Shown piece by piece: positions 21,964 through 31,731 of a stretch of 32,000 bases of DNA. Position 1 is the first letter of the stretch; the number at the start of each line of letters is the position of its first letter. Origin of the DNA: Candidatus Harpocratesius repetitus. Lineage in GTDB: Archaea > Asgardarchaeota > Lokiarchaeia > Sigyniarchaeales > Promethearchaeaceae. Under the pieces are notes generated by a model, which did no database searches, was not told the origin of the DNA, and saw only the letters and a list, made by a program, of their open reading frames with translations. The translations under genes and the position numbers were made by a program. The DNA lies in the NCBI GenBank assembly GCA_021498095.1, contig JAIZWK010000001.1, positions 2,850,001 to 2,882,000 of the forward strand. The letters are read 5' to 3'.

Positions 21964-22515
21964 ATGAAACAATTAGATCTTGGAAAAATACATTTTTATT
22001 ATGGAATGGGAACAGGAAAAACATCCATTGCTATGGGTCGAATTGTCCGCTGCTTAGGGCATAATTTACGCCCAATTCTAGTCCAATTCTTGAAGAAACA
22101 CGATCCATCGTCTTCAAAAGGCTTTTTTTATGGAGAATATATTACTTTCACAGAACGTTTACAAATTCCTGTAATACAATTTGGTAATTATAGTTTTGTC
22201 AAAACCCCTGCACAGATTGAAGCAAATCGCAAATTAGCTGCAGATGCCTTAAAAAAAACTCAAGAAATTCTAAAATCTACAGATTATGACTTGATAGTTC
22301 TTGATGAAATTGGTTCAATGGTAGAATTGGGCTTATATTCTGAAGATGATATTATTTTAGTTTTAAAAGACCGAAATCAAAAAGCAGAAATTATTATGAC
22401 CGGACACAAACCCCTTGAAAAGATTATAGATATGGCTGATTATGTGACATATTTGCAAGAAATAAAACACCCTTTTCAAAAAGGAGTACAAGCTCGAAAG
22501 GGAGTTGAATTTTAA
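21964..22515 (+). CDS. cobO: cob(I)yrinic acid a,c-diamide / cob(I)alamin adenosyltransferase (CobO/BtuR/CobA type)
   Basis: YYGMGTGKTSIAMG P-loop, VQFLK, DLIVLDEI, EIIMTG and KHPFQKGVQARKGVEF. Confidence 0.92.
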   Translation: MKQLDLGKIHFYYGMGTGKTSIAMGRIVRCLGHNLRPILVQFLKKHDPSSSKGFFYGEYITFTERLQIPVIQFGNYSFVKTPAQIEANRKLAADALKKTQEILKSTDYDLIVLDEIGSMVELGLYSEDDIILVLKDRNQKAEIIMTGHKPLEKIIDMADYVTYLQEIKHPFQKGVQARKGVEF

Positions 22516-22730
22516 ACTTAATTAGAAGAAAATGAGAACTTATATTCAAAACCGACATAATTTATTTAATGGACTATCATCAAAAAATAGATAGATAGGA
22601 AAAAAATACATGAATTCAGCAATACAGAACTAATAACGTAATCTAAAGTAGAATTAATTAAATATATAATCCAACAAAAAATAAAACGTAAAACAAGATA
22701 ATAATCAGATACAAAAAAGAAGTGTTTAAT

Positions 22731-24443
22731 ATGACAGAAAATACGAAAGAATCGCTCAATAAAAAAATCTTAGAAGAGACTGAGCGTTGGATTAACACCA
22801 CAGTTGCACAATCTTTAAAAAAAGTGCCAGAGCGAAAGAGAAATTTCAAAACATTATCAAATATTCCAGTAAAAGCTTTGTACACACCAGTAGATATTGG
22901 GAATCTAGATTATTTTGATGATTTAGGTTTTCCTGGTGAATATCCTTATTTAAGAGGTGCACAAGCTACCAGCTATCGAGCACGGTTTTGGACTATGCGT
23001 CAATTTGCTGGTCTTGGAACAGCGAAGGAAACCAATCAAAGATTTAAGTATTTAATCCAAAATGGGCAAACAGGTTTGTCGGTTGCCTTTCATCTTCCAA
23101 CAATTTATGGTTATGAATCGGGATCACCAATGAGTGCAGGTGAAATCGGCAAAGAAGGTGTTGCAATTGATACATTAGCGGATATGGAGGTTGTTTTTGA
23201 TGGAATTGATCTTAGCAAAATCTCCACCTCAATGACTATTAACGCACCAGCATCAATACTTCTCGCAATGTATATTGCAGTAGGAGAAAAGAAAGGAGTT
23301 CCTATGGAAAAACTAACAGGAACCATACAGAATGATATTTTAAAGGAGTATCAAGCTCAAAAATCGTATATTTTTCCTCCTGAACCTTCCATGCGCTTGA
23401 TTGTGGATACTATTGAGTTTTGCACTAATCATGTACCAAAATGGAATACAATCAGTATTAGTGGATATCACATTCGAGAAGCAGGTTCGACAGCAGTTCA
23501 AGAGTTAGCGTTTACTTTGGCAAATGGATTCGCTTATGTTGAAGCAGGAATGGCTCGAGGGTTAAATGTTGATGATTTTGCACCCCGTCTATCCTTCTTT
23601 TTCAATGCTCATAACAATTTCTTTGAAGAAATCGCAAAATATCGAGCAGCTCGACGTATTTGGGCGAGACATATGAAAGAGATATATCATGCAAAAGATC
23701 CACGCTCATGGCGTTTACGATTCCATACACAAACTGCTGGTGTTTCACTAACAGCACAAGAACCTTATAACAACATTATTCGAGTTACATTACAGGCACT
23801 AGCAGCAGTATTAGGAGGAACACAATCACTTCACACAAACTCATTTGATGAAGCATTAGCTCTTCCATCTGAAGAAGCAGTTAAAATAGCTTTGCGAACC
23901 CAACAAATTATTGCACATGAATCAGGAGCAGCTGATGTTATTGATCCTCTTGGTGGTTCATACTATGTTGAATGGTTGACTAATCAAATGGAGGCCGAAG
24001 CAGAAAAATATTTTGAACATATCAAGAAATTAGGAAATGGATCAATGCTCCAAGGTGCTTATGTTGGTATAAAGAATAATTTTTATCAACGTGAAATCGC
24101 AAATGCTTCATACCAATATCAAAAAGAGATAGAAACTAAAGAACTTGTGCAAGTGAGTGTTAATGAATTCAAAATTGAGGAAGAACTAGATAAAAAACCG
24201 GAAATTCTTAAAATTTCTGAACATGTTGCTGAAAAACAGATACAAAATCTTCAAAAAGTAAAAAGTGAGCGTGATAATGCTCGAGCTCAAGAATGTTTAC
24301 AAACCTTACGTGAAAAAGCAAAGACTAATGAAAATCTAATGCCATATATTTTAGATGCGGTTAAAGCTTACTGCTCAGTTGGAGAAATTGTGGATGTATT
24401 TCGAGAAGTCTTTGGTGTTTATCGTGAGGATTCAATTTTTTAA
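22731..24443 (+). CDS. B12-dependent acyl-CoA mutase, large (substrate-binding) subunit; methylmalonyl-CoA mutase family with isobutyryl-CoA mutase-type residues
   Basis: [50 protein letters not shown] and [12 protein letters not shown]. The ATG at 22731 is preferred over the GTG at 22722. Confidence 0.93.
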
Positions 24444-24472
24444 AATTCTATAAAAAAGAAAGTTGTGATTAT

Positions 24473-24868
24473 ATGGAACGTAAAATACGATTAATAGTGG
24501 CTAAACCAGGTTTAGATGGACATGATCGAGGAGCAAAAGTGATTGCTCGTGGGCTCCGAGATGCTGGTTTTGAAGTAATTTATACAGGATTGCATCAAAC
24601 TCCAGATGATATTGTGCAGAGCGTGATACAAGAAGATCCCGATGCGCTTTTACTATCAATTCTCTCTGGGGCTCACCCAGTTTTGTTTCCTGAAATAACC
24701 AAAAAATTACATGAAAATGGTGTTGATGATGTGTTGGTTTTGGGGGGTGGAATAATTCCTGAAGAAGATGTTCCAGCTCTGAAAGAAGCAGGAGTTAGTG
24801 AAGTATTTGGACCAGGAACGAAGATTCAAGAAATTGCAGATTATATTCGCGCTAATTTAAAGCGATAA
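24473..24868 (+). CDS. acyl-CoA mutase small, cobalamin-binding subunit
   Basis: [15 protein letters not shown] (DxHxxG), LSILSGAH and GGGIIP. Confidence 0.94.
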
Positions 24869-24968
24869 AAAGATTTTCAAGCTTAAGTTAATTTCTTTTT
24901 TTACTATATATTTACAAGTGAAAAATTTTTTCTTTCAGTGTTTATGCGACATTTACGGAGTTTAAAAG

Positions 24969-26015
24969 ATGCAAATGCAATATTCTGATGATCTCATTCA
25001 ATCTTACATAGATTTAATAAAACAGAAAGAAGACTCAGTCAAAAAAAAGAGAGCGTTAGCGCGATTAATAACTTTAATTGAAAATGGTGGTCCAGAAATC
25101 GCGCAGAAGATCATTCCTCAAATTTACAATTTAACAGGGCATGCAAAAATCATCGGTATTACCGGCGCACCTGGTTCCGGCAAATCTACTCTAACCTCCC
25201 AAATAGCAGATCATTACTTGGAGCAAGGATTAAAAGTTAGCGTTATAGCTGTTGACCCTACATCTCCATTCAGCGGAGGTGCTCTTTTGGGAGATCGAAT
25301 TCGAATGAAGAAAAATTTTACAAATCCACGATTTTTCATTCGATCCATGGCAAATCGGGGCCAATTAGGAGGTTTAGCCATGGCCACTAAAGATGTTATT
25401 CATGTTTTAGATGCATATCACAGCGATATTATTATTATCGAAACGGTAGGCGTTGGGCAATCAGAAATTGATATTTTTAAGAGTGCTCATACTACTTTAG
25501 TAATTACACCCCCAGGATTAGGAGATGAAATTCAAGCAATTAAAGCAGGTTTAATGGAAATAACGGATATATTCGTGGTAAACAAAATGGATAGAGACGG
25601 AGCGGACAAACGCGTAGCAGAGTTGCAAACAATGCTAGATTTCGCAGAAAATATTGAAATTAAAAATGATCAAACCCAAGCAAAAGTTGTTCGTTGTGAT
25701 GGATGGCGACCTCCTGTGATAAAAACAAACGGAGTAACTGGAGAAAATGTCCCTCTATTATTGGAGAATATTAAAAAACATCAAGAATTCTTGAATCAAA
25801 CAGGATTTATAAAAAAAAGATTGCAATTTAGATATAAACACTATATAGTTGAAATTTTGAAATATTTTTTGGTTAAAAATGTTGAAGAAATTGTTTTTAC
25901 AAATGAGAAAATTAACGAATTCATCGAGAAGATTTTAAGTCATGAACAAGGTGCTGATCCCTATTCAATATCTGGTGCAATCATGGAAATATTTCGGGAT
26001 CGCTATTTTTCATAA
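24969..26015 (+). CDS. meaB: MeaB/ArgK family metallochaperone GTPase
   Basis: GITGAPGSGKST, AVDPTSPFSGGALLGDRIRM, FIRSMANRG, ETVGVGQSE and VNKMD. Confidence 0.94.
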   Translation: MQMQYSDDLIQSYIDLIKQKEDSVKKKRALARLITLIENGGPEIAQKIIPQIYNLTGHAKIIGITGAPGSGKSTLTSQIADHYLEQGLKVSVIAVDPTSPFSGGALLGDRIRMKKNFTNPRFFIRSMANRGQLGGLAMATKDVIHVLDAYHSDIIIIETVGVGQSEIDIFKSAHTTLVITPPGLGDEIQAIKAGLMEITDIFVVNKMDRDGADKRVAELQTMLDFAENIEIKNDQTQAKVVRCDGWRPPVIKTNGVTGENVPLLLENIKKHQEFLNQTGFIKKRLQFRYKHYIVEILKYFLVKNVEEIVFTNEKINEFIEKILSHEQGADPYSISGAIMEIFRDRYFS

Positions 26016-26040
26016 TTTGGGAATAAGGAAATGAAATAGA

Positions 26041-26805
26041 ATGCAAAAACAACTGCTTGTGTACGGAGGTGGAAAATTTGGGTCTCATGTTTTTGAAAAA
26101 TTCCATGAAACATTCCGTTTGTTTATTATTGATAATGATCCGAATTGTTCTGCGAGCAGTTTACCAATTTCAAAAGATTATAGTACTAATTGGAACCATA
26201 TTCGAGATCAAATCAATCATACCAAAGATTCACTTTTCATTTTAGGAGATATTGAAATAGTTATGCATTTTTTGGAAGAAATTCCATTTGAATACCTAAT
26301 TCCAGTTGTTCCAATCCATGTTATGAAAGAAATAATACTTAAATCCCTAAACAATTGGTTTCCAGAAATAAACTTTAAAAATGGGACAATACCTCCTATT
26401 CCACCTGATCTAATTCCCAAAGAGTTACAAATATTTTCAGAAAACTCTTATACAATCTTTTTTTCTTATGCAAAATGGGAAGAAAAATGCCCAATTAATT
26501 GTTCTGGTCCATTAGGTTATTGTCCAATCCACAAACGATTAAAACCAATTTCTATTACCGATCTTTGCCGCACAGCTTGGCCAAATCCCTCAAATTTCTT
26601 ATTTGAAAGTTACCAATTAGCTCCAGGAATTGGAGGAATTCCTTCTACAGAGATAAGGAAAAAATTAGGTAAATTACGAAATTTATGTGAAAAAGAATTT
26701 AATAATCCCAGAGGAGTAAAATCTGCAAAAATTTCAGAAGAAATTCTTGTATGCACTACATGTAATTGTCATGGAGTCGCTTCTGGTCTCACTTATGTAA
26801 AATAG
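26041..26805 (+). CDS. hypothetical protein with an N-terminal Rossmann GxGxxG motif and Cys-rich putative metal sites
   Basis: LLVYGGGKFG...FIID; CPINCSGPLGYC; SYQLAPGIGG; CTTCNCHGV. Confidence 0.65.
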   Translation: MQKQLLVYGGGKFGSHVFEKFHETFRLFIIDNDPNCSASSLPISKDYSTNWNHIRDQINHTKDSLFILGDIEIVMHFLEEIPFEYLIPVVPIHVMKEIILKSLNNWFPEINFKNGTIPPIPPDLIPKELQIFSENSYTIFFSYAKWEEKCPINCSGPLGYCPIHKRLKPISITDLCRTAWPNPSNFLFESYQLAPGIGGIPSTEIRKKLGKLRNLCEKEFNNPRGVKSAKISEEILVCTTCNCHGVASGLTYVK

Positions 26806-26865: not shown

Positions 26866-27318
26866 TTAATAATTCGGCATTCTTCGTTTATTATGATATT
26901 CATCTTCAATAGTAGCAATATAAGTTCGTTGATCTTGCAGATCTCTAATTATTTCATTAAGATGATAGTATACTTGTTTTTGAATATTATCGGTATGATC
27001 TCCTGCATGCATAAATCGAGTGATTTTGACAATTAATTTGGCACTTTCTTTATATTTTTTATTAACATTTGGCAATTCACGAGATGTATTCACATTATAA
27101 TAATAATCTACTGCATTTGATATGTTCTGAATATTTATTGCCAGCATTTTCGCTTTCAATGGGCTGTTAAGACATTTTTCGAGATTATTCTTAATTTGTT
27201 CAAGATTTTTATTCAATTTTGCGCGTTTTGCTTCATATTCTGCTTGAGAAAATTTATGGGAAACTTTATCATCATTATTCTTTTTGTTATTACTTCTTAT
27301 CATATGATTTTGAACCAT
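26866..27318 (-). CDS. hypothetical helical protein
   Basis: 150-aa ORF with a GGAGG Shine-Dalgarno-like sequence upstream (about 27329-27333); no recognisable motif. Confidence 0.6.
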   Translation of the reverse strand: MVQNHMIRSNNKKNNDDKVSHKFSQAEYEAKRAKLNKNLEQIKNNLEKCLNSPLKAKMLAINIQNISNAVDYYYNVNTSRELPNVNKKYKESAKLIVKITRFMHAGDHTDNIQKQVYYHLNEIIRDLQDQRTYIATIEDEYHNKRRMPNY

Positions 27319-27597: not shown

Positions 27598-30006
27598 TTA
27601 ACTTACTTCTAACATAGACCAAATGGTAGACGCAAGTAAAATATTTCCATTATAGAACCATTTTAACCCAATTGAGAATAATAACCAATTGATTTGTTGT
27701 GAAATACCCATAAATTCTTCTATAAAATAAAAACTACTAAATTGTTCAAAGAAATTAATCATATTAGGTGAAGGAAGATTAATAAATTCCGCAACAAGCG
27801 ATGCATTGATATTTTTAACAATTTCGGGTATTTCAGCACGATTATTCATCAATCTGATAGCATTTAAGAAAAAAATGTACGTTTCTATAGATGAGAATTG
27901 AAAAGAACCTAGATAATCATCCCAATTATTTGTAATTTGAGCAAATTGTAAATGTGAAAGAAGTATATTCTGAGGTATAATAGATTCATGTGGATTTCCT
28001 GTCAAATATATTTGAATTGCAGGTAATATTTCTCCAAATTTTGCTCGTCTAGATATTAACGGATTTCGTGGAATCATTAGAACTTGAGGCCCACCTTTTG
28101 GATTGTCATAGACATAGAATTGGTGGGGAATATGAGCAAACTTATAATAATATAATGAATTTAGAGGAAGGTTAATTCCATGATTGTATAGAAACTTTAT
28201 CTCTACTTGATTCAATACTTTTCCCTCATTATGTTTCTTCAAATAAACGTAAATTTGTTTTAAAGAGCGTGATTGAGCATAATTTTGGGAAAATTCTTCT
28301 ATTGCTGAAGTAGAAATAATTTGAGTCTGTTCAGGATCAATTTTAAGTGTTGATTCATAAGATGTAAACCATGTTGAATCAATTAATGCACTTGCAGATT
28401 TTGTCTTTGAAGTGGGAGAATCTGTTATTTGCAGTAGTGGATCTCTTTGAATTGCTTTTTCAAGATCAAAAGAAACATCTGGTTTTGATATTTTTTTCTC
28501 TTCACTAAAAAAAATATTTAGTTGTTTTTTGAATTTTAAATTTGGTGCATTATCATCTTGTTCTGTTTTTGTACTAAAAGTTAAATTCTCAAAATATTTC
28601 TCTTTTTTCATCTGTTCAATTTTCTGCCAATTGATCTTAGGTTTAAGTTGTTCAATCTCTTTTGCGATTTTATATGTATTTTTTTCACTATTCATTTCAT
28701 AACTAAGTAAATGCATTTCTTCTAATAATAGGAACTTTAATTCGTAATCTTGAGCTTTTTCTGCATTTATAATAGATTTAGACAATAATTTATAACGCAA
28801 TTTGCTTAGCGATATTATTTCCATATTTATTTTTTTTAATTTTTTTATATTTTCTCCTTTTTGATAGAAATATTTTGCTTCATTCAATAATGATAATTTC
28901 TGAGCGATTTCTGAAATAGAATCATTAGAGAGTTTCGTAGCTTGAAATTGAAGTTGATCTCCACGTTTCTCATTGAATTTTTTTAATCGACTTGAAATCC
29001 TGGAGATTTCTTTTTTAGCATTTATATCTTCAAAAATGTGTTTTGCTTTCTCATAATCATCTAATGTTTTTTGTGGATCGCATTTCAATTCAGATTTATA
29101 TGCTCGATCTTCAAACCACCGACCAAGTAAAATCGCAGCATTAAGATATTTCGATTTGGCCATCTTTTTTTTAGATTCATCTTTTATTACATGATATTTG
29201 GTGAAAGCAGCTTTATATTTTTGCAAACTTGAGTAATAATCTTGCTGTTGCTCTAATAATTCTCCTTGATGAAGATCGATCTCAGCTAGTTTTTCTGTTA
29301 GTTTTAATTCAAATTTATAAAATTGAATCTCTAATTTCTTAGAATTTTTAATCATTTTTAAAATACTTTTTAATTTCTGCCAATAATCCAAAGCTTGAAT
29401 TATATTTTCTTTCATTAACATGCGATTTAATTGTTCTATAAAATAATTGGCAATTTCCTTAAAAATAAATTGTTGAATTTTAACAAATTCATCTTCATTT
29501 GGAATAAAGTATTTTTTTAATTGTGGTATTTTTAAAAAAAAATCAATGTAAAGAGATGAAACATAACCAAATAAATTGAGAATTTCGTAGAAATGACGTT
29601 CTAAATGTCGTCTTTTCAACTCTACACTTTGAATCGTCGACAATACCTTAAAAACCCATGTTTCAAAAAGATTAAAAGATTTTTTATAACTATGGTTTAA
29701 AGTCTTATCCGAAGAAGGTGAATATTGATAAAGTGAGTTTTGTAAATCTAATAAATTGATAAAATTGATGCTTGTTCGAATTTCATTGTTATCTTGAAGA
29801 GATTTCTCCGCCTTAACTAATTGCTTATCAAAAAGTATTTTTAAGCAGAGCAGAAAATAGTGTTCAACATCATTTTTATCATTTAAAGAAAGAATTCCGA
29901 TATTTCGTTTTAAATAATAGAGGTACTTTAAAGCTGGCTGATATTGTCCACTTTTTAAAAGACTAACTGCTTTTGAGACCGTAATTTGTGGAGGAGTTCC
30001 AGCCAT
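27598..30006 (-). CDS. large hypothetical protein with TPR/alpha-solenoid-like N-terminal region
   Basis: 802 aa; repeated helical pairs such as GELLEQQQDYYSSLQKYKAAFTKY and KTLDDYEKAKHIFEDI; a low-complexity linker, then a distinct C-terminal globular region. Confidence 0.65.
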   Translation of the reverse strand: MAGTPPQITVSKAVSLLKSGQYQPALKYLYYLKRNIGILSLNDKNDVEHYFLLCLKILFDKQLVKAEKSLQDNNEIRTSINFINLLDLQNSLYQYSPSSDKTLNHSYKKSFNLFETWVFKVLSTIQSVELKRRHLERHFYEILNLFGYVSSLYIDFFLKIPQLKKYFIPNEDEFVKIQQFIFKEIANYFIEQLNRMLMKENIIQALDYWQKLKSILKMIKNSKKLEIQFYKFELKLTEKLAEIDLHQGELLEQQQDYYSSLQKYKAAFTKYHVIKDESKKKMAKSKYLNAAILLGRWFEDRAYKSELKCDPQKTLDDYEKAKHIFEDINAKKEISRISSRLKKFNEKRGDQLQFQATKLSNDSISEIAQKLSLLNEAKYFYQKGENIKKLKKINMEIISLSKLRYKLLSKSIINAEKAQDYELKFLLLEEMHLLSYEMNSEKNTYKIAKEIEQLKPKINWQKIEQMKKEKYFENLTFSTKTEQDDNAPNLKFKKQLNIFFSEEKKISKPDVSFDLEKAIQRDPLLQITDSPTSKTKSASALIDSTWFTSYESTLKIDPEQTQIISTSAIEEFSQNYAQSRSLKQIYVYLKKHNEGKVLNQVEIKFLYNHGINLPLNSLYYYKFAHIPHQFYVYDNPKGGPQVLMIPRNPLISRRAKFGEILPAIQIYLTGNPHESIIPQNILLSHLQFAQITNNWDDYLGSFQFSSIETYIFFLNAIRLMNNRAEIPEIVKNINASLVAEFINLPSPNMINFFEQFSSFYFIEEFMGISQQINWLLFSIGLKWFYNGNILLASTIWSMLEVS

Positions 30007-30012
30007 AATTTA

Positions 30013-31116
30013 TTATAAAATTGGCGTAATAAAAATATTTATGCCAGAATCATCATATTGTAATAAATTTGATTGACTTTTGGATTCATCTTCAGGAATT
30101 TTTTGCCAAATTTCAATTTTTTTCCGATTTACAAGTTGTAATAAATAAAGTAATGTTCGAACAATTCCTTCAGGTTCAGGAGATAAAACAAGATATAGAA
30201 AAGAAATAGGTTCATCAGGTTGATATCGTTTTTGGATTGTCTGAAAGAGTTGTTGGATTTGCTCTTCAATTAATGCATGATTTTCTTCTGCTTCTTTCAA
30301 AAAATTTGGTGGTATAATTTGATCTGTTTCAATTCTTATATGGTTTCGTTTATAGTTCTTATTACTAGAGCGAATTTGATATTTTAAAGTTTTAATTAAA
30401 GCATTTCCTAATTCACAAAAATCGACTTTTCGATATACTTTTCTTATGGGTGATGCTAAATATCGATTTCCATTTCGATCTTGTTTAAAGAATGCATTTG
30501 TTGAAGAAAATTTCTTCAATTCAGAATCTCTTTCATGTAAATACTGAGAAATATTTGAGTTAAGATCATAATTATCATTAATTTCAGAAGTTATTGATTC
30601 TCTTTTGCCTAAAATAGCATTTAATCCTACTTTATTAATTAATTCTTCATTTGAATCATCATTTTCGAATTCTTCATCGAAATCATGGAAATCTTCTTCT
30701 GAGACTTCATTTTCTTCTAATATATCTTGTGTATGATGTGAGTCTTGAATAATCGAATCCGATTTTGCATGAATTAACCTAGAGGTTGAATAAAGAACGC
30801 GACCTCCAATACGAAATTTAATTTCACTGTTTTTGTACATTCTCTGTTGAATTTTTTCTAAAGTAGTTTTTATATCAATTTGCCAAGGATTTTGTTTGAT
30901 CATGCTAGAAAACTCATCATTATTTAGTAAAATACCAAGATCTGCAGCTTTTTGAGATATAAGTGAGAAATTTTTGGATAAATGTTTATTTGTACGGGAT
31001 AAATTTTGAGTGCCTTGGGAATCTATTTTATTTGAGACATTTTTTGAAATTCTAATCGAATTATTCAATTTTTCTCCAATATGACTAAGATGATGCTCTG
31101 GTTGTATTATTTCCAT
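30013..31116 (-). CDS. scpA: kleisin, segregation and condensation protein A (ScpA)-like
   Basis: N-kleisin motif NPWQIDI...FRIGGRVLYSTSRLIHAKSD and C-terminal winged-helix motif ISF..L.......IVRTLLYLLQLVNRKKIEIWQ, joined by an acidic linker. Matches the remembered archaeal ScpA consensus (PWDIDI...LR.SGR.L..AS.L...KS; FL.LL.L...G.I.L.Q). Confidence 0.75.
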   Translation of the reverse strand: MEIIQPEHHLSHIGEKLNNSIRISKNVSNKIDSQGTQNLSRTNKHLSKNFSLISQKAADLGILLNNDEFSSMIKQNPWQIDIKTTLEKIQQRMYKNSEIKFRIGGRVLYSTSRLIHAKSDSIIQDSHHTQDILEENEVSEEDFHDFDEEFENDDSNEELINKVGLNAILGKRESITSEINDNYDLNSNISQYLHERDSELKKFSSTNAFFKQDRNGNRYLASPIRKVYRKVDFCELGNALIKTLKYQIRSSNKNYKRNHIRIETDQIIPPNFLKEAEENHALIEEQIQQLFQTIQKRYQPDEPISFLYLVLSPEPEGIVRTLLYLLQLVNRKKIEIWQKIPEDESKSQSNLLQYDDSGINIFITPIL

Positions 31117-31422
31117 AATGAATTTAATCCTTCTGTCTGCAAATCTTTATAATGATTATAGCAATCAAACTAGATAATGGAAAGTTGACTGCTAAAATAC
31201 ATTTAATCCACTATTATGGACATATCATGGAAATATTATTGAAATATTGTGTGAATAATACAATTCAGATAGTATTAATGTTATTAAGAATGCACAATCA
31301 AATTCATTACAAATAGAAATGTTCAAATAATTATTTAAGCGAATAAAATAAAATACTAATAAAACTTATCAACACTAGCTAAATACTTAAGATTAGGATC
31401 ATTTGAAAATAAGTGACGAGTT

Positions 31423-31731
31423 ATGATTGATTCAAAAGCGATTAAAGCAATTATTAATAAATTTATGGCAGACGACCAAACGCGAGCTGTAATCATCTGT
31501 GATTCAGAAGGTTTACCAATTCAATCTTCATTTAGAGGGGAACAAATTGAAAGAACAGAAGAGATTTCGGCATATATTACTGCTTTGATTTCTCGAGGAA
31601 AACAAACCGTTGAAGTTTTAGGAGAAGGAAGATTAAATTTTGTAAGGTTGGAAACTGACAAGGGTGAAGTAATGATTGCACCTCAGGAAGGCTTAATTTT
31701 AATTGTATTACGTAATACAACTGATTACTAA
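31423..31731 (+). CDS. roadblock/LC7 domain protein
   Basis: 102 aa, AVIICDSEGLPI, helix EEISAYITAL, then NFVRLETDKGEVMIAP...LIVL. Confidence 0.88.
   Translation: MIDSKAIKAIINKFMADDQTRAVIICDSEGLPIQSSFRGEQIERTEEISAYITALISRGKQTVEVLGEGRLNFVRLETDKGEVMIAPQEGLILIVLRNTTDY

Follow-up and report, generated by a model that had tools for sequence, protein, structure and literature searches.

An ScpA-type kleisin gene is paired with a gene for a large, predicted TPR-like solenoid protein in one Lokiarchaeial family

Prokaryotic Smc-ScpAB complexes, including those of B. subtilis and of Pyrococcus and Thermococcus, combine an SMC protein with ScpB, a small winged-helix KITE subunit, and with the kleisin ScpA, which has an N-terminal helical domain and a C-terminal winged helix. 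In eukaryotic cohesin and condensin, large helical-repeat partners have taken the place of KITE subunits, and how this came about is an open question; to our knowledge, no helical-repeat SMC partner is known from a prokaryote. Here we describe a locus of the Asgard archaeon Candidatus Harpocratesius repetitus, in a stretch of 32,000 nucleotides (nt) that was analysed as a whole (contig JAIZWK010000001.1, positions 2,850,001 to 2,882,000 of the forward strand; hereafter the window), where a gene for a 367-amino-acid (aa) kleisin is directly followed by a gene for an 802-aa protein, hereafter the partner. Asgard archaea have been reported to carry several SMC-kleisin-kite operons, while hawks were not found in prokaryotes (van Hooff et al., bioRxiv 10.1101/2024.01.07.573240), and the duplicated SMC-kleisin-kite operons of archaea are three-gene operons (van Hooff et al., bioRxiv 10.1101/2024.01.07.573240; Yoshinaga & Inagaki 2021, PMC8665677). 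The first of these studies mentions neither a kleisin-partner pairing nor a helical-repeat partner and the second mentions no helical-repeat partner, and a further study lists condensin-like HEAT/ARM solenoids among Asgard-eukaryote structural clusters and does not mention TPR proteins beside kleisins (10.64898/2026.10.28.762692). In the literature we found no mention of the P. syntrophicum locus tags or of a TPR partner of an archaeal ScpA, and the kleisin-partner pair is apparently undescribed.

We assign the 367-aa gene, with high confidence, as the canonical scpA of a KITE-containing Smc-ScpAB that has become detached from smc-scpB, and its adjacency to the partner gene exceeds chance. The system resembles described Smc-ScpAB in the two ScpA domains of its kleisin, in its SMC equivalog and ScpB, and in that SMC, ScpB and kleisin co-occur or are lost together across relatives; it differs in that scpA lies apart from smc-scpB and encodes a longer kleisin, a Roadblock gene is paired with scpA, and the TPR-like gene of about 800 codons has no counterpart at described Smc-ScpAB loci. 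Like the Asgard archaea in which SMC-kleisin-kite operons were described, this organism has several SMC complexes that do not share a kleisin or a kite, but the condensin/cohesin-type kleisin is here split off from the three-gene arrangement and coupled to a TPR-like gene. The HAWKs (Scc3/SA, Pds5, Scc2/NIPBL, CAP-D2 and CAP-G) are likewise large helical-repeat proteins tied to a kleisin with a lengthened middle, a tie that is here genetic only; however, the partner appears to be TPR-like rather than HEAT, matched no HAWK in the sequence and structure searches, is encoded by a single gene rather than by an A/B pair, is confined to one Lokiarchaeial family, and occurs where the KITE subunit ScpB has been kept. 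Scc4/MAU2, the TPR subunit of the cohesin loader, also places a TPR-type superhelix in an SMC context and aligns weakly with the partner, but this likeness is no greater than that to unrelated TPR proteins, and the partner has an additional, novel C-terminal domain. MAU2 binds the N-terminus of Scc2/NIPBL; no such candidate was seen here, where no search for NIPBL-like proteins was made.

The features of the locus and of the two proteins are as follows.
31423..31731, plus strand: Roadblock/LC7 gene, 102 aa (PF03259, E 3.1e-11).
31117..31422: 306-nt intergenic stretch that separates the divergent scpA and Roadblock genes, the presumed promoter region of both.
30013..31116, minus strand: scpA, encoding the 367-aa ScpA-type kleisin (open reading frame (ORF) listing, kleisin profile matches).
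Kleisin residues about 1-60: variable N-terminal tail.
Kleisin residues about 61-135: N-terminal SMC-neck-binding helical domain.
Kleisin residues about 136-200: strongly acidic middle (charge profile).
Kleisin residues about 201-260: basic conserved stretch.
Kleisin residues about 285-367: C-terminal winged helix.
30007..30012, minus strand: spacer TAAATT, 6 nt, separating the stop codon of scpA from the start codon of the partner gene (sequence).
27598..30006, minus strand: partner gene, encoding the 802-aa helical-repeat protein (ORF listing).
28588..30006, minus strand: partner residues 1-473, predicted basic all-alpha TPR-like solenoid (AlphaFold2 (AF2) predicted local distance difference test (pLDDT) score of ~90).
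28273..28587, minus strand: partner residues 474-578, disordered and poorly conserved linker (pLDDT <50 over residues 473-578).
27598..28272, minus strand: partner residues 579-802 and stop, predicted compact helix, beta-hairpin and helical domain, the most conserved part of the protein.

An earlier note on this DNA, made from the sequence alone, had reported that the ATG of the same-strand 802-aa ORF follows the kleisin stop after 6 nt and that a Roadblock gene lies divergently upstream of the kleisin, and the ORF listing, the junction (...ATT TTA TAA, then TAAATT, then ATG GCT...) and the PF03259 match bear out both observations. A spacer of 6 nt is too short for an intergenic promoter, and co-transcription of scpA and the partner gene is therefore likely, as far as can be judged from the sequence. 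The note's wording that the partner gene stands there "instead of scpB or smc" holds for the window, as neither smc nor scpB is among its genes, but not for the genome, in which smc-scpB is found at 1.712-1.716 Mb.

When the 367-aa protein alone was compared with Pfam, it matched three kleisin families, all below threshold and arranged along the protein in the order expected of a kleisin, namely Rad21_Rec8_N (residues 73-138, E 0.032, a weak match), SMC_ScpA (PF02616; residues 200-342, E 1.6e-4, 22.2 bits vs a cut-off of 24.6) and CNDH2_C (residues 287-347, E 0.024). That the single sequence misses the gathering score of PF02616 marks it as a divergent member of the family, and this is outweighed by matches to ScpA domains at the profile level; a profile built from 13 orthologues and run against chains of solved structures matched, at profile positions 55-114, an N-terminal domain of ScpA (6ivh_A, E 1.1e-11) as well as two winged-helix chains of the ScpA C-terminus solved together with SMC heads (4i99_C, E 1.1e-10; 5xns_C, E 5.7e-10). 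By this profile, the protein has both of the domain types through which kleisins attach to SMC proteins, a helical one at the N-terminus (for the SMC neck) and a winged helix at the C-terminus (for the SMC head cap), and its earlier identification as a kleisin is upheld by matches to both domains at E values of about 1e-10 or better. Orthologues carry the public names "ScpA/B protein" (Promethearchaeum syntrophicum) and "Rec8/ScpA/Scc1 kleisin family", and the kleisin measures 367-408 aa, vs 299-328 aa in the sampled sister families that have no partner.

The genome is a single 4.36-Mb contig with several SMC-type loci, and four SMC-type systems were located in it (1712176-1716392, 1238999-1243949, 569146-575777 and about 1137563-1140538). 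SMC-A (1206 aa, 1712176-1715796) has ScpB (196 aa) directly downstream and no adjacent kleisin, and this smc-A/scpB pair lies 1.16 Mb away from the window kleisin. At 1.239 Mb lies an SMC5/6-like operon, the products of which are an SMC, a 268-aa protein and a ScpB-like protein, and at 0.569 Mb a gene for a long SMC is followed by genes for a 366-aa kleisin, the N-domain of which was detected by the window-kleisin orthologue profile, and for a 331-aa ScpB-like protein. Only SMC-A passed TIGR02169, the archaeal SMC equivalog (828.5 bits vs a cut-off of 729.4), and SMC-A alone is without a kleisin neighbour, the other SMC-type loci having kleisins of their own; the window kleisin, in turn, is the sole match to PF02616 in the genome. 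The occurrence of the window kleisin was compared with that of the SMC-A hinge orthologue in 41 genomes of the order: 15 contain the two together, 23 contain neither, and the remaining three, in which they disagree, are 63-87% complete. Our assignment of the window kleisin as the canonical scpA thus draws on SMC-A being the sole equivalog and the sole kleisin-less SMC locus, together with the phyletic co-occurrence of the two genes. Since SMC-A, its ScpB and the window kleisin are jointly missing from 23 of the 41 relatives, many of which are 98-100% complete, repeated loss of canonical condensin seems to be common in this order, and such clean co-loss of SMC, ScpB and ScpA helps to assign kleisins to SMCs in genomes with three or four SMC systems. 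A ScpB orthologue is found beside the canonical smc in the window's genome and in the other partner-bearing genomes checked; as ScpB is retained beside SMC-A, it has not been replaced by the 802-aa protein, and the idea that the partner takes its place is not sustained.

In four genera (g1, g5, g6 and g7), the partner gene comes 6-68 nt after the kleisin gene and shares its strand, and two of these linked genomes are closed, their kleisins being publicly named under P. syntrophicum and L. ossiferum; the P. syntrophicum pair consists of DSAG12_02495 and the next gene downstream. In another four contigs, from metagenomes, the Roadblock gene is divergent from the kleisin gene and the latter is followed by the partner gene, with gaps of 8-120 nt and partner identities of 22-31%; across all linked loci, partner identity spans 22-61%. 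Genes outside the Roadblock-kleisin-partner block vary between genera, and conservation of the block hence does not reflect general colinearity. Conservation of the pair in related genomes, on which the earlier note had staked its proposal, was thus found in four genera and four metagenomic contigs, and the chance adjacency that it had left open is contradicted by the recurrence of this gene order on one strand, at spacings of 6-120 nt, amid differing flanks. As outgroup families have the Roadblock gene divergent from the kleisin gene without a partner, the partner gene appears to have been inserted behind scpA and then kept; the most parsimonious history starts from a divergent Roadblock-scpA pair in the ancestor of the order, continues with insertion of the partner gene behind scpA in the ancestor of the family, and ends with its retention.

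The Roadblock/LC7 gene is unusually conserved, with identities of 80-93% inside the family, compared with 33-57% for the kleisin, and of 49-60% in other families, and it adjoins the kleisin gene or, where the kleisin has been lost, the partner gene. Its divergent pairing with scpA extends throughout the order (window 31423-31731, plus strand; L060:7166-7450; L059:6349-6633; L029:5449-5757; L028:9616-9924) and includes families without the 802-aa partner. We know of no description of a Roadblock-kleisin link.

The partner has no match in Pfam or NCBIfam and was modelled with AF2 on a 13-sequence alignment (mean pLDDT 80.5). In the model, about 19 alternating long and short helices form a solenoid over residues 10-473, which in the window protein has an isoelectric point (pI) of 9.4 and a net charge of +22 and is basic throughout the partner family (pI 8.8-9.4, net charge +7 to +24). 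Comparison of the linkers identified a short genus-level motif (LIDSTWF..), and the 224-aa C-terminal domain, into which 15 of the family's 20 invariant columns fall, gave a pLDDT of 89.3 and a predicted template modelling score of 0.85 when modelled alone. No fold relatives of this domain were found with Foldseek against the PDB (best E 1.5), in a wide VIA-align search (best Z 4.8) or in the ESM Atlas (TM <=0.35). For the solenoid, Foldseek and VIA-align returned generic TPR proteins as the closest structural neighbours (BF2334, RapI, Pins/LGN and APC subunits; Z <=11.2), and the sequence carries a TPR signal in the form of weak Pfam TPR matches in 4 of 13 members and of matches to consensus-TPR PDB chains (E 2.4e-4); an ESM Atlas feature search with the partner gave scores of <=0.81 and returned TPR or unnamed clusters only. 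The solenoid is thus of TPR-like type as modelled, and the helical-repeat nature proposed for the 802-aa protein agrees with an all-alpha AF2 solenoid for which TPR proteins head both structure searches. The specific likeness that had been suggested, to HEAT or HAWK proteins or to MAU2, was not recovered in these searches; Scc4 (5w94_C) was reached at rank 31 with Z 8.7 and a root-mean-square deviation of 27.8 A, which is background for helical repeats by the calibration of the tool, separase (Z 8.9) also fell within background, the HEAT, Cohesin and Cnd families of Pfam did not match the partner, and no HEAT or HAWK chain was among the top structural matches listed.

A profile search of 1.84 billion protein representatives identified about 16 full-length relatives of the partner, of 750-1129 aa. 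A profile of the C-terminal domain matched in all six sampled genomes of the window's own taxonomic family and in none of 294 other genomes sampled across the phylum, and searches of single genomes found a partner homologue in 13 of 13 genomes of the family, a Lokiarchaeial one that includes Promethearchaeum and Lokiarchaeum. Confinement to one Lokiarchaeial family indicates that the partner is a late, lineage-specific addition and not an evolutionary intermediate on the way to the eukaryotic complexes or a HAWK precursor; the "intermediate" option of the earlier note is thus strongly disfavoured, both on this distribution and on the lack of a specific HAWK or MAU2 likeness among the matches. 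Outside the family, the profile for the helical part of the C-terminal domain was weakly matched, at a domain E of about 1e-6, by a 600-aa protein (L085:6987-8789, genome G021, family f3), which could be a remote relative or show mere TPR-like resemblance.

With regard to function, we tentatively favor a reading in which the partner is a family-specific accessory or adaptor of Smc-ScpAB, added to ScpB and analogous, but not homologous, to the helical-repeat partners of eukaryotes. The 367-aa kleisin closes the ring of an ordinary Smc-ScpAB whose SMC and ScpB are encoded together far from it; in this Asgard order, scpA stands apart from smc and lies divergently beside the Roadblock/LC7 gene, and in one family the gene of about 800 codons was added directly downstream, where it is probably co-transcribed. 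Under our reading, its product would act as a lineage-specific adaptor alongside ScpB. The architecture of the partner, as modelled, is suited to such a role, in that the TPR solenoid could serve as a peptide- or protein-binding platform, for which the elongated acidic middle of the kleisin is a plausible ligand, while the C-terminal domain may contact another component. The gene identities, the domain architecture, the synteny and the phyletic patterns are observed, whereas co-transcription, any physical contact and the adaptor role are inferred.

Several observations weigh against this reading. Genera g2 and g3 (three genomes, 76-91% complete) are without an orthologue of SMC-A, its ScpB and the kleisin, and yet keep a full-length partner homologue of 1015-1091 aa, directly divergent from the Roadblock gene, in which all invariant residues of the C-terminal domain are retained; as the partner was retained after loss of the kleisin, SMC-A and ScpB, it has, or gained, a kleisin-independent function. 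In genus g4, SMC-A and the kleisin are present and a partner-like gene (738 aa) lies on another contig. As the pair is conserved in one taxonomic family only, phylogenetic inertia contributes to its conservation. A fusion of kleisin and partner was not found, no kleisin homologue in the collection searched exceeding 644 aa, which is a weak negative, and the motif FFxxDRxGxRY was rejected as a partner-specific kleisin motif, since an alignment of about 60 kleisins showed a variant of the same region in partner-less ones.

The partners of the kleisin-less genomes have themselves changed. Their disordered linker is replaced by an insert of 290-370 aa with 39-45 Cys residues in repeated CxxC...CxxC units, a zinc-finger array that has no Pfam match, and they diverge most from kleisin-linked partners at residues 51-150, 401-450 and 701-800; the linker swap and this divergence fit a protein that took on another function once the SMC complex had been lost. 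A metagenomic contig has the same kleisin-less arrangement of Roadblock and partner genes as g2 and g3, and the spacers between these two genes held no remnants of a kleisin pseudogene at the zinc-finger-type partner loci, which are the following.
L025:4644-7691: zinc-finger-type partner.
L026:5150-8425: zinc-finger-type partner.
L027:184-3234: zinc-finger-type partner.
L072:6001-8772: zinc-finger-type partner.

The partner-like gene of g4 has neither a kleisin nor a Roadblock gene adjacent. Divergent 738-aa members of the partner family (L084:6730-8946, genome G005; L071:1882-4098) match the solenoid and, of the C-terminal domain, no more than the first two-thirds, and are flanked by unrelated genes, with a BpsA_C-family gene upstream.

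The main rival explanation, which we regard as a serious possibility, is that the partner is an independent TPR scaffold with an unrelated role, which was inserted behind scpA in the ancestor of the family and kept there by the shared promoter, with no contact to SMC. TPR scaffolds are abundant and functionally diverse, and a bystander of this kind would account for a partner that is kept where SMC-A, ScpB and kleisin are lost, with its C-terminal invariant residues intact, that is unlinked in g4 and that is distributed over one family only. It accounts less well for a pair that stays together down to 22-30% identity while the flanking genes reshuffle, and the Cys array and divergent stretches of the kleisin-less partners fit a protein whose function shifted once the SMC system was gone. 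A version that goes further than the adaptor reading, in which the 802-aa protein would be a fourth subunit or dedicated regulator of Asgard Smc-ScpAB and its solenoid would grip the lengthened kleisin beside ScpB, appears rather unlikely to us.

We consider it improbable that the partner works instead with the Roadblock/LC7 protein, a module of GTPase-regulatory type, with scpA as the bystander. The Roadblock gene does border the block in every linked genome and is still directly divergent to the partner gene at the four kleisin-less loci (L025, L026, L027 and L072); however, this adjacency in g2 and g3 is the expected by-product of a clean deletion of the kleisin gene, the g4 partner-like gene is found away from any Roadblock neighbor, and families f3 and f4 have the divergent Roadblock-kleisin pair and no partner homologue, which shows that Roadblock does not need the partner. 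Finally, that the partner is a homologue or precursor of the HAWKs or of Scc4/MAU2, as a large alpha-solenoid beside a longer-than-usual condensin/cohesin-type kleisin and the presence of Scc4 in the structural list might suggest, is highly improbable given that its best neighbors are generic TPR proteins, that Scc4 is at background, that HEAT and HAWK proteins are missing from the top structural matches and HEAT, Cohesin and Cnd from the Pfam matches, that ScpB is retained, that the partner occurs in a single family of the 301 genomes sampled across the phylum and that prokaryotes yielded no hawks in a study dedicated to the evolution of SMC complexes (bioRxiv 10.1101/2024.01.07.573240).

Elsewhere in the window, a 150-aa ORF (26866-27318, minus strand) without a Pfam match lies 279 nt downstream of the partner gene on the same strand; it shows 59% identity, is kept in the same genus only and falls outside the conserved block. 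The plus strand at 21964-26805 carries a cluster of cobO and genes for the large subunit of a B12-dependent mutase, a B12-binding subunit and MeaB, which is unrelated to the kleisin-partner pair and is followed by a gene for a 254-aa protein without a Pfam match.

The locus thus yields no ancestor of the HAWKs; what it yields is a conserved Asgard case in which the gene for a canonical kleisin is coupled to that for a large solenoid protein and ScpB is still present. As the pair occurs in the species publicly named Promethearchaeum syntrophicum and Lokiarchaeum ossiferum, direct testing is possible. If the two proteins do not bind, the locus would be an ordinary scpA beside a family-specific orphan; if they do, a KITE-containing ring can add a solenoid subunit, and, should the partner prove to be a fourth subunit, these archaea would represent an independent, convergent prokaryotic invention of the large-helical-repeat-on-kleisin design that eukaryotes reached with the HAWKs.

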